From Escherichia phage EPFV3-03/2025: 64,000 bases of DNA. This document shows, piece by piece, positions 17,929 to 45,379 of this stretch (the stretch's first letter is position 1; every line of letters starts with the position of its first letter). The position numbers and the translations under genes are program-made. The stretch lies in the sequence record PV435126.1. The stretch is one strand, 5' to 3'. The notes below the pieces were generated by a model, which was not told where the DNA came from, searched no databases, and saw only the letters and a program-made list of their open reading frames with translations.

Positions 17929-18038
17929 TGTTGCACCCCCTCTTCATCCTCATGATGTTTCTTTTCACGCTTGTGTTTTTTCTTAAGCTCAAGCGCAATC
18001 TCTTTTTTGTACGCCTTCTTCAAGGCCTTTTTAGCCAT
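17926..18038 (-). CDS. small lysine-rich protein (about 37 aa, below the ORF-track cutoff)
   Basis: ATG preceded by gaggagg RBS; translation MAKKALKKAYKKEIALELKKKHKREKK..; consensus TTGACA-N17-TATAAT promoter upstream on the minus strand. Confidence 0.4.
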
Positions 18039-18100
18039 TTGGCACCTCCTCTGCTTTCATTACGCTAATTATAACCAACTTAACAAGACTTTGTCAACAA

Positions 18101-18592
18101 TTAGTCAACCTGAACCCAACCGCCTGCTACCTTTTTAAACATTCTTTGGTTATCGCTGCCTCGGAATGGTTTCTTGGTTGGTAAATCTTTTACATACTTT
18201 CCATCAATGACGATATCAGCCAGTTTAAGAACATCACTAGAGATATGCTCAAATGTGAACCCAGTATACACAAGAATAGTTTTCTTGTCACCAAACTTTT
18301 CCTTAATTCTCCTCATAAGGTCAATAATACCTGGCTCATTATAAGTAGCCAAAGGCTCTCCACCAAGTAAAGAAATACCGCATACAGATTCATTGTCTAA
18401 ATCCAACAAAATTTTCTGCAAATCTTCTTCGGTGAACTCTCTTCCTTTATCTTTTGACCAAAATGCTTGATTAAAGCAACCAGGACAAGCGTGTGGGCAC
18501 CCAGATACCCACAAAGCTGTCCTAATACCTGGTCCCTCGGTGTAAGATATCTCTGTATACCCGACAATATTCATACATACTCCGCATCGCAT
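18101..18592 (-). CDS. nrdG: anaerobic ribonucleotide reductase activating protein
   Basis: 163 aa; radical-SAM-type cysteine cluster GCPHACPGC; directly downstream of nrdD. Confidence 0.8.
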   Translation of the reverse strand: MRCGVCMNIVGYTEISYTEGPGIRTALWVSGCPHACPGCFNQAFWSKDKGREFTEEDLQKILLDLDNESVCGISLLGGEPLATYNEPGIIDLMRRIKEKFGDKKTILVYTGFTFEHISSDVLKLADIVIDGKYVKDLPTKKPFRGSDNQRMFKKVAGGWVQVD

Positions 18593-18750
18593 TTAGGACA
18601 ATGCCAAATAAAATCGTCCAGTGCCTTACACCAACGAAGATTGCAATGACAACCACACTTGCAAATTTTATAAATACCTGTAGACATACTGCACCTCCTA
18701 GTTTACTGTGTAACAACAATATGCCACATCCTTGTGACTTTTGTCAAGTA

Positions 18751-19713
18751 TCAGCAACCACAACTTCCGTAGTGCTTAACCCGTTCTATAACCTCCGCTT
18801 GCTTACCTTTATTGTAAGGACGAGAGTTTGGACTGGACAGATACCCGGATACGCGTCTGATCACACTGATCGTTCCTTCTTCATGGTTTCCACATTCTGG
18901 GCATACAAAGCCTTTAGCTGTTGCACTGAACTCACCAGAGAATCCACACTTAAGACATTTATCCACAGGCTGGTTAATACCAAAATACATAATGTGTTTA
19001 TATCCGAAATCAACAAGAGCTTCCAAAGCATCTAAGTTGTTTTTCAGATTTGGTGTCTCTATGTACCCAATGTTGCCACCAGAGGAGATCATAGCAAAAC
19101 CTTCCTCATACTTCCACTTATCAAAAGGCGAGCTATTGATCCATACTGGCTGATGGAAACTGTTGGTGAGGTATTCATGCTCGTGCTTCAACACTTCTGG
19201 GTATTCACGATCCAGACAGGTTGCAGCTTTATAGCATAAACTCTCAGAAGGTGTGCCGTACAAGCTAAATGCTAGTCCACTTTCCTTCTTGTATCGCTCA
19301 CAAGCATCTTTCATGTGCTGAAGGATTCCAAGAGCTAAAGCCTTGTCACCCTCTCTGCCCAAAATCTGACAGGTTTCATACACACCAATATACCCAATAC
19401 TGATGGAAGCGTACCCGTCATAGAAGAGTTTATCGATACTCTCTTCAGGATCCAGGCGAGCAAGAGCTCCTTCACACCACATGATAGGGTTCTGCCCTGC
19501 CTTTGTTCCTTTTAGACGGTTAACCCTTACAAGGTGAGCCTCATATGCCAAATCCAAATATTCGTCAAGAACTGCAAAGAAATCAACACCTTCCGTTTTA
19601 GCTTTTGCCGCAATCATTGGTAGGTTAAGGCTAACAACACCCAAGTTGAATCTGCCAAGGTATTTCTCCTCGCCTGTTACAGGGTCGCTATATTTCGATA
19701 AGAAACTTCTACA
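18751..19713 (-). CDS. nrdD: anaerobic ribonucleotide reductase, exon 2
   Basis: Begins at CRSFLS; C-terminal glycyl-radical motif RVSGY and cysteine tail CGC. Confidence 0.8.
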   Translation of the reverse strand, partial: CRSFLSKYSDPVTGEEKYLGRFNLGVVSLNLPMIAAKAKTEGVDFFAVLDEYLDLAYEAHLVRVNRLKGTKAGQNPIMWCEGALARLDPEESIDKLFYDGYASISIGYIGVYETCQILGREGDKALALGILQHMKDACERYKKESGLAFSLYGTPSESLCYKAATCLDREYPEVLKHEHEYLTNSFHQPVWINSSPFDKWKYEEGFAMISSGGNIGYIETPNLKNNLDALEALVDFGYKHIMYFGINQPVDKCLKCGFSGEFSATAKGFVCPECGNHEEGTISVIRRVSGYLSSPNSRPYNKGKQAEVIERVKHYGSCGC

Positions 19714-20475
19714 CATTATGTTCAAGGTGGTTCGCAAGGCCACCCCCGCACCTTTACGTGCTGCTGCATGTCCCCATGCAGATCAGACTATATCTTCACA
19801 CTTAGTGTGTCTACCATTTCGAGTGTCATCAGCTTACACCCTACACCGCTACATTCATCACGGTTAGTCGTTAGGCATTTCGTAACAGAACTCGTAATCA
19901 TAGTTATTAGGTGCACCACGTTTCAGGATAGCAGATATTCTTTTTCTATCTATTCCTAAAACATCAGCACAACATCTCAGACTCTTAAAGTGAATAACCA
20001 CACCAGTTAATTTGTGGGTGGCTTTCACCCCGTGACATCTTGTGTAAAAAGCATAACAGTTGTTGTCGTATCCTTCTTGAGTATTGTCTGGGCAAGCTCC
20101 CCACTCAAGGTTGTATACGCTGTTATCTTTCCTGTTGTCACCTTTGTGCTTAACATATGGTAAATTGTCTGGATTTGGTAAAAACGCTTCAGCAACAAGT
20201 CTGTGAACCCTTAGGCAAACAGTCTTTTTGTTCTTGCGTATCCTGACAAGACGGTAACCTGTGTTTATCTCTTCCCACGAATGAATAATTCTTTCATTTT
20301 CGTATCGGGTGCAATAAACATTGCCCATCTCGTCAATTTCATAACCTTCAAAATCACGAATTTGTTTTCTCATTTCAGGACTCCTCTTAGTCAGGAGTTC
20401 TGTTACGTTTAGCACGGGATTGTCCGTTCTGGAGTTTCCCCGTTTAGATAGATTTTACATGAGCAGTTATAGTTT
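19714..20475 (-). mobile_element. candidate group I intron in nrdD carrying an HNH homing endonuclease
   Basis: nrdD reading frame is interrupted; exon 1 ends in U (..atgggt) and the intervening sequence ends in G before tgt(Cys); free-standing HNH ORF inside; same arrangement as the T4 nrdD intron. Confidence 0.6.
19864..20415 (-). CDS. HNH homing endonuclease
   Basis: 183 aa; VHRLVAEAFLPNP...KHKGDNRKDNSVYNLEWG, typical HNH_3-type motif. Confidence 0.8.
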   Translation of the reverse strand: MLNVTELLTKRSPEMRKQIRDFEGYEIDEMGNVYCTRYENERIIHSWEEINTGYRLVRIRKNKKTVCLRVHRLVAEAFLPNPDNLPYVKHKGDNRKDNSVYNLEWGACPDNTQEGYDNNCYAFYTRCHGVKATHKLTGVVIHFKSLRCCADVLGIDRKRISAILKRGAPNNYDYEFCYEMPND

Positions 20476-21636
20476 ACCCATGCTTGTTACTTTGCCGTCT
20501 GTTGAACCTGTCACTTTACGATTCAGCGGAACAGAAACAAAGTCAGGATAAATCCGCTCTGCAGAACATTCTAGAGCCAATCGTTTCAAATCGTAGTTAG
20601 GATCCCCAGGGTTCATGTTGACACCCTCCTCTAAGAAGAACAGCACTTTAGGGAACACAGGTGTGATCCGTTCTTCACCAAGACCCATTTTGTGAACTTT
20701 CAAGTAGTTTTTGGTAATCATTCTACCAAAGACCGAGGTATCTAGCCCTAAACTTAATGTGATGAATGGAGTTTGCCCGTTGACAGAAGTTAACGTATTG
20801 ATTTGGTAGAGCAAAGTTTGCATACTATCAAACACGTCTTTATCTGTCATTTGCATTGCAACAGTCTCAGCATCTGGCAACCAATGTTCCTGACAAAATT
20901 TAAGGTTCTTCTCGTAGGTTGCTTCAGCATACTGTGCCAGATAATGATCAATATGGCTCATGGTCTGACCACCATATTGAGCACTAGCTACTGCACTAGA
21001 GATTTGGCTAAGGATTGTTGTTGCAACCCCTATTGACTTCGGCTTACTGACATGGGCGTTGCCAATGTTGAATCCGTTTTCCAGCATATCCGGATAATTT
21101 ACCAAACAACAGTTTGTTAACGGACTGATCAGGTAGTCAAGATCATGCACATGGATGAAGCCTTTGTTGTGCTCTTCGGAGACACGGTCTGGCAGGATCT
21201 GTGTTGATGCAAGATGTTTGCTAAGGATTCCTGCAAGCAGGTCACGATGAGTGTGTACATGATTAGTAGGCTTATTTGCGTTTTCTTTTGTAAATTCATC
21301 ACAAGTACGATCCAAGAAGCCGCTAATATCTGCAAGCAGTTTTCCACCTGCCTCTCTGTTATTATCCCTTGTCTGTCTATACTGGATGTATTCTCTGGCT
21401 GCACATTTTAAACCCATATCCATAAGAGCATCTTCAACAAGGATATGGATATTTTTTACAGAGATCGTGCACTGGTCAGTTGGCAGATTGTTGGCAACAA
21501 CTTCATTAACCGCACAGGCAATCCGGTAAGCTTCTTCTTCAGTATGTCCAGACTCAAGTAAGGCGGACTCTGCCGCCTTGATCACCTTAATTCCGTTATA
21601 AAACTCTTCTCTACCGTCCCGTTTTACAACTTTCAC
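20476..21636 (-). CDS. nrdD: anaerobic ribonucleotide reductase, exon 1
   Basis: N-terminal ATP-cone-like start MKVVKRDGREEFYNGIKV and GFIHVHDLD region; ends ..VTSMG. Confidence 0.8.
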
Positions 21637-21911
21637 TTTTTCTCTCCAAAACCATTCTTAACAAAAGAGATGAAATCGTCAGCACCACCTATGTGGATAC
21701 TGTCAAGGTTGCTTTCCAAGAAGATCTGAGGCAACGTTCTGGGAACAAATGGGCTACACTTCTCGATAAGCTCTTCTTTTGTGTATCCTTCACCTAGCGT
21801 CTTGTATACGAAAGGTATGCCTTTACTGACTGCAAATTCTTTTGCTCTTACACAATGTGGGCAGTTATCCTTACCGTAAATGATGATGAAAAAAGATTTT
21901 TCGCAGCTCAT
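21633..21911 (-). CDS. glutaredoxin-like protein
   Basis: 92 aa with CPHC redox motif (YGKDNCPHCVRAK); adjacent to nrdB. Confidence 0.7.
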   Translation of the reverse strand: MSCEKSFFIIIYGKDNCPHCVRAKEFAVSKGIPFVYKTLGEGYTKEELIEKCSPFVPRTLPQIFLESNLDSIHIGGADDFISFVKNGFGEKK

Positions 21912-21914
21912 ATA

Positions 21915-23003
21915 TTAAAACTCCCAAATTTCTTCTTCAGCGTCGTTAACAGTTGTGTTGACGCGGTAGTCAGTGTTCGACATTTCTTGGTTCGCCGTCT
22001 GTTGCAATGAAGGTTTCATCCACACCTGCATAAACGGTAGCGGGTCCTTTGTTGGCGGCACAAAGTCTTTGTCGATGTCGTAATAATCATAAATCGGTGA
22101 GCAGTTATAGTCAACCCATTCTTTAAGCAACGGTGAATTAAGACCTATAATCGCTCTTCCTTCGCTGAAAATATAGTCACTCCAACCGTACTCCTTGGTC
22201 CGCACTTCGTCAAGAATTTCTTTTAACTCACCCTTAATCTCAAGAAAGCTTTGCTCCCATGCAGGATCATCAAGCAGGATATCGATGATAGCAAAATCAC
22301 CTTTCGAATGCAGCATTTCATCAAGCATAATTTTTTGAACAAGTTGTGCCACTTGAACAAAAATACCTTGCTCAGCTACTGCGAACGTACATGCAAAACT
22401 TGCAATAAACTCAATACTTTCTAGAGCTAAAAGTGCAAAAAGTGCTCTAAGGATACATTTCCGTACAACATCTTCTTCAACACTGGAAGGATCCAGTCGG
22501 TATTTTGCACCAATAACCTCAAGCTCTTGCATATATTTGACAATAACTCCAGATCTGCTCAGCACGTTCTGGTTTTCCTGAATCTCTTCTATAATCTCGC
22601 GAGCATTAGGAAGGCATTGTCTAACAATCTCTGAGTAAGTTAGTGCATGAAGAACCTCAATCTCAGACTGCTTCATCAACAAGGTGAAAAGCTCACTGTT
22701 GGTGATAAATGGTGAAAACAGACAAATGATAGATCTTGCTGCAACACTGTCTGCCTCCCATTGCCACATCAGTGTCTGCACCATCACATCGTAAGTTGAC
22801 TTTGAGCATGTTACGAAATCAGAAATAGACTGTGACAAATCTACTTCGTCCTCTGCCCAATCTTGTTCTTTTTGTTTTTTGTATAGTTCAAACAGCTGTG
22901 GATACTTTTTGTTAATAGAGTCGTACATCCCCATCTGCTGTCCTAGAAACAGCGGATAATCACCAGTTTTATGAGCAGTGTTCTCAGTATTAAATACGGA
23001 CAT
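21915..23003 (-). CDS. nrdB: ribonucleotide reductase small subunit
   Basis: 362 aa, ferritin-like di-iron protein directly downstream of nrdA. Confidence 0.85.
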   Translation of the reverse strand: MSVFNTENTAHKTGDYPLFLGQQMGMYDSINKKYPQLFELYKKQKEQDWAEDEVDLSQSISDFVTCSKSTYDVMVQTLMWQWEADSVAARSIICLFSPFITNSELFTLLMKQSEIEVLHALTYSEIVRQCLPNAREIIEEIQENQNVLSRSGVIVKYMQELEVIGAKYRLDPSSVEEDVVRKCILRALFALLALESIEFIASFACTFAVAEQGIFVQVAQLVQKIMLDEMLHSKGDFAIIDILLDDPAWEQSFLEIKGELKEILDEVRTKEYGWSDYIFSEGRAIIGLNSPLLKEWVDYNCSPIYDYYDIDKDFVPPTKDPLPFMQVWMKPSLQQTANQEMSNTDYRVNTTVNDAEEEIWEF

Positions 23004-44566: not shown

Positions 44567-44641
44567 GCCCTGTTAGCTTAGTGGATAAAGCAGCGGCCTT
44601 CTAAGCCGTTGACACTGGTTCGAGTCCAGTACGGGGTGCCA
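44567..44641 (+). tRNA. tRNA-Arg (anticodon UCU)
   Basis: Cloverleaf by eye: acceptor gccctgt/acggggt, anticodon loop cttctaa, T-loop ttcgagt, encoded CCA. Confidence 0.75.
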
Positions 44642-44645
44642 AATT

Positions 44646-44732
44646 GGGGAGTTATCCCGTAGAGGTAGCGGTGTAGACTGTAAATCTATTGTCATTGCGA
44701 CTCGGGTGGTTCGACTCCACCACTCCCCACCA
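44646..44732 (+). tRNA. tRNA-Tyr (anticodon GUA)
   Basis: Acceptor ggggagt/actcccc, anticodon loop ctgtaaa, long variable arm, T-loop ttcgact, CCA. Confidence 0.75.
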
Positions 44733-44856
44733 AATTTATATTTTTAAATGCATAAATCATACAGATAATGACATTGATATTTATCGTCGTTTATACTAGT
44801 CACTAACTGCTCGAAAATCAGTGTCATTATCAGTGTAATTTATAAAGGAGGGTAGG

Positions 44857-44947
44857 GAGCAATGGTGCTCAAGCGGTCTTGAAAACCGTCCCGTTGAGGA
44901 TGACTCGATGATGGTTCGATTCCATTACTCTCCGCCACATTGTTGAC
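44857..44947 (+). tRNA. tRNA-Ser (anticodon UGA)
   Basis: Acceptor ggagggt/actctcc, anticodon stem-loop gcggt-cttgaaa-accgt, long variable arm, T-loop ttcgatt, CCA; exact 5' end uncertain. Confidence 0.6.
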
Positions 44948-45035
44948 CTTGTAATTAAGCGAAAGCCGGAAGCAGAACCGGATTATCAAATGTTACAGTC
45001 GTCATCGCCGACTAGCCACATGGTCAACATATTGC

Positions 45036-45134
45036 GCTAGGTAAGCCCTTTGGCAAGGGCGAGGATTTTTAATCCTGAAAATAGACGAGGTAGTCGTTGA
45101 ATACATAGGTGGTTCGATTCCATCACCTAGCACC
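45036..45134 (+). tRNA. atypical oversized tRNA-like element (about 99 nt; anticodon uncertain, loop candidate tttttaa)
   Basis: Perfect 7-bp acceptor pairing gctaggt/acctagc, D-arm gccc-tttggcaa-gggc, T-arm ggtgg-ttcgatt-ccatc, but about 30 nt between anticodon arm and T-arm. Confidence 0.4.
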
Positions 45135-45139
45135 TTTTT

Positions 45140-45215
45140 GCTGATGTAGCACAATTGGCAGTGCAATTGATTTGTAATCAATAGGTTGCAGGTTCGAGTC
45201 CTGCCATCAGCACCA
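45140..45215 (+). tRNA. tRNA-Thr (anticodon UGU)
   Basis: Acceptor gctgatg/catcagc, anticodon stem-loop attga-tttgtaa-tcaat, T-loop ttcgagt, CCA. Confidence 0.75.
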
Positions 45216-45216
45216 T

Positions 45217-45291
45217 GGCCCTGTAGCTGGAAGGTTCAAGCAAGCGACTCATAATCGCCAGACGGTGGTTCAATTCCACCCAGGGCCACCA
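45217..45291 (+). tRNA. tRNA-Met or Ile2 (anticodon CAU)
   Basis: Acceptor ggccctg/cagggcc, anticodon loop ctcataa, T-loop ttcaatt, CCA. Confidence 0.7.
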
Positions 45292-45303
45292 AATAATAAA
45301 TAC

Positions 45304-45379
45304 TCCGCGTAGCTCAGCTTGGTAGAGCGCCTGATTTGGGATCAGGAGGTCGAGTGTTCGAATCACTCCGTGGAGACCA
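45304..45379 (+). tRNA. tRNA-Pro (anticodon UGG)
   Basis: Acceptor ctccgcg/cgtggag with C1-G72, anticodon stem-loop cctga-tttggga-tcagg, T-loop ttcgaat, CCA. Confidence 0.7.

Follow-up and report, generated by a model that had tools for sequence, protein, structure and literature searches.

Group I introns with endonuclease genes are known from several phages. The nrdD (sunY) gene of T4 carries a group IA2 intron with I-TevII, and the td intron of T4 and RB3 carries I-TevI. In Vequintavirinae, introns with HNH genes were described in terL, DNA polymerase, nrdA and nrdB, and their splicing was shown by reverse-transcription PCR (PMC7344957), while the rV5 paper reported introns in the terminase only and the Felix O1 paper reported none. 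The subject of this analysis is an insert in nrdD (18751-21636, minus strand) of Escherichia phage EPFV3-03/2025 (PV435126.1), of which a stretch of 64,000 nucleotides (nt), called the window below, was studied. The insert is a known kind of selfish element at an nrdD site without earlier description, and very probably it is a mobile group IA2 self-splicing intron with an HNH endonuclease gene, belonging to the same ribozyme lineage as the introns of T4 nrdD and td. In the literature on rV5, Vequintavirus, Phapecoctavirus and Felixounavirus, no description of this nrdD intron was found.

The T4 nrdD intron interrupts the same host gene. The two ribozymes were 64% identical over cores from which the open reading frame (ORF) had been deleted, and 80% identical over 118 nt within the 3' core. 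Neither has P2, both have P7.1 and P7.2, and they share an identical guide (GCUCAUG) and the common target word AUGRGU. The differences lie in place, ORF and length. The T4 intron follows nt 538 (codon 180, phase 1) and the window intron, which is in phase 0, stands 110 codons downstream, before the codon that matches T4 Cys290; the T4 ORF is I-TevII, a GIY-YIG enzyme encoded after P9, whereas the window ORF is of the HNH type and lies in the P6 loop; and the T4 intron has 1033 nt against 762 nt. A first-pass annotation, made from the letters of the window, had named T4 nrdD as a parallel with an intron and endonuclease at a comparable place. The parallel in intron and endonuclease was borne out, but the place was not.

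The td intron resembles the window intron in another set of features, with its ORF in the P6 loop, the 3' end of that ORF extending into P6', the endonuclease Shine-Dalgarno enclosed in a hairpin (PMC2988022), the same 3' end (..GAACAUAAUG) and a nearly identical P3-P5 sequence. It is unlike the window intron in having P2, in interrupting the thymidylate synthase gene, in encoding a GIY-YIG enzyme and in its guide, GCCUGAG. For the encoded protein the comparison is with I-HmuI, the HNH nicking enzyme of the DNA polymerase intron of Bacillus phage SPO1, which is likewise intron-encoded and of similar size. The window protein appears to share with it N-terminal DNA-binding strands, an HNH motif and a C-terminal helical NUMOD-like module, but their identity is low, and host gene and intron are different.

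Introns at the very same site were found in nrdD of Phapecoctavirus (nepoznato and AMO3598), Felixounavirus REP9 and Vibrio phage F89, all inserted at the identical point ..AUGGGU/UGY.. (MG/CR). The NrdD proteins of these hosts are only 26-68% identical, and the ribozymes are homologous, with 69-91% identity. The ORFs of F89 and nepoznato are homologous to the window ORF and share its end (..EMPND and stop), which overlaps J6/7-P7; in AMO3598 the ORF is deleted, leaving an intron of 290 nt, and in REP9 a remnant only is present. The taxonomy of the AMO3598 record says 'Viruses' only; the introns of AMO3598 and Phapecoctavirus nepoznato share 99% identity. None of the four records annotates an intron.

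Reading frames and boundaries of the insert

The nrdD gene was divided over two ORFs with an HNH ORF between them, as the first-pass annotation had described. The upstream ORF (21636..20467, minus strand, 389 amino acids) contained the ATP-cone and positions 1-263 of the Pfam NRDD profile, and the downstream ORF (19743..18751, minus strand) contained positions 263-562 together with Gly_radical; the profile stops and restarts at position 263, therefore it is continuous over the gap. Exon 1 begins with GTG, overlapping the glutaredoxin stop. When the exons were joined, 2124 nt gave 707 amino acids with a single stop, which is terminal, and none internal. Aligning the joined exons with intact NrdD, a check proposed in the first-pass annotation, gave a seamless protein whose residues 103-701 aligned with T4 NrdD (PDB 1H78) at E 2e-168, including MGCRSFLS. 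The first codon of exon 2, Cys388, fell opposite T4 Cys290 in this alignment, which we take to be the Cys-loop cysteine that turns into a thiyl radical (Logan et al. 1999; Andersson et al. 2001). In glycyl radical enzymes generally, the Cys loop separates two half-barrels (review, PMC13450708). Once the insert was removed, the features of a class III ribonucleotide reductase, namely contiguous NRDD, the Cys-loop cysteine and the glycyl-radical domain, were all in place.

The boundaries of the insert are exact. The intron-less nrdD of phage S127 BCL3 aligned up to 20476 precisely, and came back into register at 19713 after a diverged 35 nt, so that the insert estimated before at about 760 bp measures exactly 762 nt (20475..19714). 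Since the two junctions have different bases, its position is fixed and cannot slide by one base either way. Exon 1 ends with ACA AGC ATG GGT and has U at -1, the insert ends with ...AACAUAAUG and its terminal G, and exon 2 begins with TGT AGA AGT TTC TTA (CRSFL), in agreement with the junctions that had been proposed by group I rules. The insertion is in phase 0 between the codons of Gly387 and Cys388, in frame with respect to intron-less alleles, and the ligated exons are predicted to read ...AGCAUGGGU/UGUAGAAGU.

Fold and splice-site pairings of the candidate ribozyme

Cores were aligned from eight ORF-deleted introns (window, AMO3598, nepoznato, Felixounavirus REP9, Vibrio phage F89, T4 nrdD, Mosigvirus G2285 and RB3 td), and the counts in this paragraph refer to that set. 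RNAalifold, with no structure supplied, returned P1, the long-range P3, P4, P5, P6, P7.1, P7.2, P8, P9, P9.1 and P9.2, with compensatory changes in 37 of the 70 predicted pairs. For the final pair set of 13 helices, the P7 pseudoknot was added to this result and two spurious helices were dropped. In the final set 95.7% of cells pair, against 34-43% with the 3' partners slid; changes on both sides occurred in 35 of 68 pairs, and none of 500 shuffles attained any of these measures. P7 was invariant across the eight introns and is therefore uninformative on covariation. The same helices were obtained from a single-sequence fold of the ORF-deleted window core, and the hallmark of subgroup IA2, P7.1/P7.2 between P7 and P3' (19821..19864), was present. 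A P3-P9 core, one of the things by which the first-pass proposal of a group I intron was to be judged, is thus found in the insert, with covariation, a P1 U·G pair, a terminal G, P10 and exact in-frame insertion.

An independent profile was built from five distant introns, with the window and its close relatives left out. Searched with nhmmer over the whole 64 kb, it gave two matches only, 20482..20401 (E 2e-14) and 19891..19711 (E 1.5e-39), which are collinear and flank the HNH ORF. No second copy of the intron core was found in the window by motif searches. As a separate observation, the 3' core (P7 to P9.2) was 76-78% identical to inserts splitting terL of Vequintavirus RudolfGeigy and nrdA of Certrevirus phiTE; thus one ribozyme family is seen in several genes of the phage subfamily.

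The pairings at both splice sites could be compared among the introns. In P1 (CAUGGGU/GCUCAUG) the splice-site U·G pair is U20476·G20464, and the distal C-G pair is changed into G-C in REP9 (GAUGGGU/GCUCAUC, a compensatory change) and into U·G in F89 and T4. P10 of REP9 and of F89 has 8 bp and abuts the guide; the two sequences differ and each fits its own exon 2. The exon 2 start of intron-less alleles, UGCCG, would not pair in P10, and the exon tract linked to the window intron supplies the partner UGUAG. The coordinates of all elements are collected in Table 1.

Table 1. Positions in the window of the two nrdD exons, the candidate intron and its parts
Feature	Positions	Strand	Basis or remark
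nrdD exon 1	20476..21636	-	387 codons; ATP-cone and first half of barrel; Pfam, intron-less allele homology ending at 20476
nrdD exon 2	18751..19713	-	320 codons and stop; glycyl-radical domain; Pfam NRDD 263-562, Gly_radical, 1H78 alignment
Candidate group IA2 intron, whole, 762 nt	19714..20475	-	One-block absence in intron-less relatives; RF00028; nhmmer; covariation
P1 5' strand CAUGGGU, last 7 nt of exon 1	20476..20482	-	7/7 pairs with guide; splice-site U at 20476
P10 strand CUAUA, intron nt 4-8	20468..20472	-	Pairs with first 5 nt of exon 2, UGUAG
UAA in exon 1 frame, intron nt 7-9	20467..20469	-	Read from sequence
Internal guide GCUCAUG, P1 3' strand	20458..20464	-	Same as guide of T4 nrdD intron
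P3 5' strand UCUAUC	20447..20452	-	Pairs with 19810-19815; compensatory changes in 5/6 pairs
P4-P5-P4' domain ACGGGG / UCC..GGA / UCCCGU	20414..20443	-	Covariation; fold of ORF-deleted core agrees
P6 5' strand CGUAACAGAACUC	20395..20407	-	Perfect 13-nt complement of 19881-19893; closes ORF-bearing loop
Hairpin ACUCCU..AGGAGU hiding endonuclease Shine-Dalgarno (GAGGAG)	20381..20399	-	Fold of ORF-deleted core
Putative HNH homing endonuclease ORF, I-HmuI-like	19864..20373	-	169 amino acids, in P6 loop; 1U3E, PHROG 59, HNH_3 matches
P6 3' strand GAGUUCUGUUACG	19881..19893	-	Within final endonuclease codons; kept in ORF-deleted AMO3598 intron
P7 5' strand GACUA	19865..19869	-	Overlaps endonuclease stop; pairs with 19786-19790; invariant in 8/8 introns
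P7.1	19845-19864	-	3 pairs with compensatory changes; aligned with T4 nrdD, td
P7.2	19821-19841	-	3 pairs with compensatory changes; aligned with T4 nrdD, td
P3 3' strand GGUAGA	19810..19815	-	Partner of P3 5' strand
P8 hairpin CACAC-UAA-GUGUG	19797..19809	-	Compensatory changes in 5/6 pairs
J8/7 and P7 3' strand AAGAUA UAGUC, guanosine-binding core	19786..19796	-	Invariant in family; best-scoring Rfam part
P9	19764-19781	-	Alignment fold, covariation
P9.1	19748-19761	-	Alignment fold, covariation
P9.2	19724-19746	-	Alignment fold, covariation
Terminal G, predicted 3' splice site	19714	-	Intron-less allele alignment, sequence
Exon tract linked to intron (apparent co-conversion), first 41 nt of exon 2	19673..19713	-	Allele comparison

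Splicing as predicted from these elements would proceed as follows. Transcription of nrdD would run through the intron, and ribosomes entering the unspliced intron would halt at the UAA. The RNA would fold into P1-P10, and external guanosine would attack after the U of the P1 U·G pair. P10 would then position exon 2, and ligation after the terminal G would give the mRNA for an intact NrdD.

Putative endonuclease gene and apparent spread of the insert

The reading frame between the two exons (20415/20373..19864, minus strand) has an AUG at 20373 with GAGGAG 7 nt upstream of it. The encoded protein is homologous to I-HmuI (PDB 1U3E) over its full length (residues 3-166 to 4-172 of 174, E 6e-8), with the His and Asn of the HNH motif aligned, and it matched PHROG 59 'HNH endonuclease' at E 4.5e-32; the ORF product encoded by the intron at this site in Vibrio phage F89 is 50% identical to it. 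The ORF had been called a free-standing gene of the HNH_3 type. The HNH assignment was kept, now as I-HmuI-type, and 'free-standing' was given up since the ORF lies inside the P6 loop and overlaps P6', J6/7 and P7. Its last 10 codons (..EFCYEMPND and stop) double as P6', J6/7 and the P7 5' strand, and because this piece is part of the ribozyme, the ORF-deleted AMO3598 copy and the decayed REP9 copy have both kept it.

The stem of the hairpin that hides the endonuclease Shine-Dalgarno covaries in nepoznato, where it reads ACUCCC/GGGGGU. Sequestered Shine-Dalgarno sequences are known for I-TevI, II and III, in which they limit translation (PMC2988022), and by analogy the hairpin in the window may have a regulatory role.

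The presence of the insert was surveyed in 60 Vequintavirus records, taken at even steps along the ranking of 118 matching records. It was present in nine and absent from 51 (about 15% with the insert), and rV5 was among those without it. The population data bear the signature of spread. The intron did not differ from the JEP1 copy at any of 762 nt, while the nrdD exons of the two phages differ at 117 nt, and among five intron-bearing relatives the intron diverged at 0-23 of 762 nt (0-3%) and the flanking exons by 4-10%.

A second sign was found directly downstream of the insert. Over the initial 41 nt of exon 2, all six intron-bearing Vequintavirus alleles were identical. Of the five intron-less alleles examined, four departed from this tract at 16 positions or, in isim, at 15, all of them between +3 and +35; most of the changes are synonymous, and three codons alter the amino acid. 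Outside the tract, polymorphisms are common to intron-bearing and intron-less alleles. The first 14 nt of the tract are the same as in the Phapecoctavirus intron-bearing allele. From these allele comparisons, the tract looks like a 3'-sided co-conversion tract. In a mixed infection, the endonuclease would probably nick or cut the intron-less nrdD near and 3' of the insertion site, and repair off the intron-bearing genome would transfer the intron and, with it, about 35-41 nt of the exon downstream.

The fifth intron-less allele, that of FV3, has a separate third haplotype at the tract. At the junction equivalent to 20476/19713 it reads ..AUGGGA/UGU AGG UCG UUC CUU GGC.., is one codon shorter and is without the U required by P1. 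To judge from its sequence, this haplotype could be a cleavage-resistant variant or a variant left after intron loss.

At nrdD codon 287/288 (window 20776/20777), FV3 and JEP1 also carry an insert other than that of the window, about 800 nt long and with an HNH ORF of its own. It gave a weak Rfam group I match (25.1 bits, E 0.0067). The window is without it, and JEP1 has both inserts. The T4 site, the FV3-type site and the window site together therefore make at least three intron sites in phage nrdD.

Two of these sites share a target word. In the readable 1702 nt of T4 nrdD coding sequence, AUGRGU occurs just twice, ending at nt 538 and nt 867. The first is the intron site of T4 itself, and the second is Gly289/Cys290, the site used in the window, Phapecoctavirus, Felixounavirus and Vibrio phage. 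One ribozyme lineage might have moved between the two nrdD sites with its guide GCUCAUG unchanged, which we consider a possible but rather unlikely history. If it were true, the choice of site would have been directed by the guide, either by reverse splicing or by strong selection for a guide match after ectopic endonuclease-driven insertion, and the unrelated endonuclease genes would have been gained separately, GIY-YIG after P9 and HNH in P6.

Weighing of the readings, neighbouring features and significance

Some results weigh against the reading of the insert as a mobile self-splicing intron. Rfam at gathering threshold gave tRNAs only and no group I match in the whole window, which is not taken to speak against an intron, as the ORF in P6 breaks the model. 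Under an E-value threshold, RF00028 matched 19998..19764 with 32.9 bits (E 2.5e-6 in a 1.2-kb search, 1.3e-4 in the whole window), below the gathering cut-off of 50 bits. J8/7-P7-P9 was aligned almost perfectly, and the 5' half was misaligned into the ORF; the low score is due to the P6 loop, which contains the ORF and, at 494 nt, is not bridged by the model. The ORF-less same-site copy of AMO3598 (290 nt, core 91% identical) reached 70.4 bits, and the T4 nrdD intron 105.3 bits. A covariance-model search, proposed as a check by the first-pass annotation, hence would by itself have been misleading, since it fell short on the window and succeeded on the copy without the ORF. Of the splice-site pairings, P10 of the window has 5 bp only and lies 3 nt from the guide. 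For the encoded protein, Pfam HNH_3 gave 20.0 bits (cut-off 24.8) and I-HmuI_NUMOD-like gave 18.5 bits (cut-off 27). In addition, Asp74 of I-HmuI, a metal ligand, stands opposite a Lys of the window ORF in the alignment, so endonuclease activity is not assured. A scan of 19650-20600 for sigma-70 promoters and terminators gave nothing above shuffled expectation, and no endonuclease promoter stood out from chance there.

The short and offset P10 would also suit a dead intron, which no longer splices, with nrdD a pseudogene and the phage using NrdAB and the host. Many relatives are without the intron, and some Vequintavirinae are without nrdD and nrdG (PMC7344957). However, neither exon is damaged, and in a comparison of two intron-bearing phages 93 exon codons differ synonymously against 10 nonsynonymously; this purifying selection argues that the gene is still expressed. 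Every core helix pairs in the window, the invariant core bases are retained, and the linked exon tract restores the P10 pairing that would be absent with UGCCG. Loss of splicing is thus considered improbable.

Still less probable is that nrdD is a gene in pieces, split by an endonuclease cassette into halves that are translated apart and assemble without splicing. There is a precedent in NrdA of Aeromonas phage Aeh1, which is split by mobE (PMC3653736), and database records show two separate coding sequences, the second starting at an AUG (19716..19714) in frame with exon 2. But this AUG is formed by the last three bases of the intron, and because the td intron has the same ..AACAUAAUG end it is an intron feature and not a start site. 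Translation of exon 2 from it was considered as a candidate in itself and found unlikely, with no Shine-Dalgarno before the AUG. What lies between the halves is a whole ribozyme, with covarying helices and with a P1 and a P10 that suit the two junctions, and copies of the insert without the ORF survive at the same site, which an endonuclease-cassette split would leave unexplained. Moreover, such a split would break the protein within the Cys loop, which is buried (PMC13450708). An intein was ruled out by the UAA in the exon 1 frame and by the HNH ORF being a separate cistron with its own Shine-Dalgarno and AUG.

The surroundings of the gene are evidently those of a Vequintavirus (rV5/FV3-like) genome, as judged by matches of the region 18000-22000, which is 99% identical to Escherichia phage vB_EcoM_SYGMH1 and matched about 300 phage records, chiefly Vequintavirus. 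The gene order on the minus strand is nrdB, glutaredoxin, nrdD and nrdG. In JEP1, nrdD and nrdG are separated by an extra segment of about 1 kb (between the equivalents of window 18703 and 18722), encoding a hypothetical protein of 311 amino acids; the window is without it, and its position is the intergenic position of mobC in T4. A tRNA gene cluster lies at 44567-45376 on the plus strand, in which six genes pass the cut-off of the Rfam tRNA model; further matches, which stay below it and have long variable arms, lie at 44646-44728 and 44847-44933. Records MG0656xx ('Campylobacter phage C2, A141, A135 ...') were about 93% identical to the window where nrdD lies; the host given in their titles seems questionable, and the record of Campylobacter phage C2 is marked UNVERIFIED and is unannotated.

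For annotation, the finding means that nrdD, filed as two genes and a 'hypothetical' or 'HNH' ORF in the window phage and in about 15% of the sampled Vequintavirus, should be one spliced gene, and the same misannotation is found in a number of records of Phapecoctavirus, Felixounavirus and Vibrio phages. The intron, identified here as very probably mobile, occupies a new nrdD site exactly at the codon of the catalytic Cys loop, which fits the rule that homing elements favour the most conserved and least mutable sequence. At this one site, all stages of the homing cycle are present in the records: the empty site, the intron with its endonuclease, the decayed or deleted endonuclease, and the linked exon tracts. 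Because the coliphages concerned grow easily, they offer a natural series in which homing driven by an HNH enzyme, possibly one that nicks and does not cut, could be followed.

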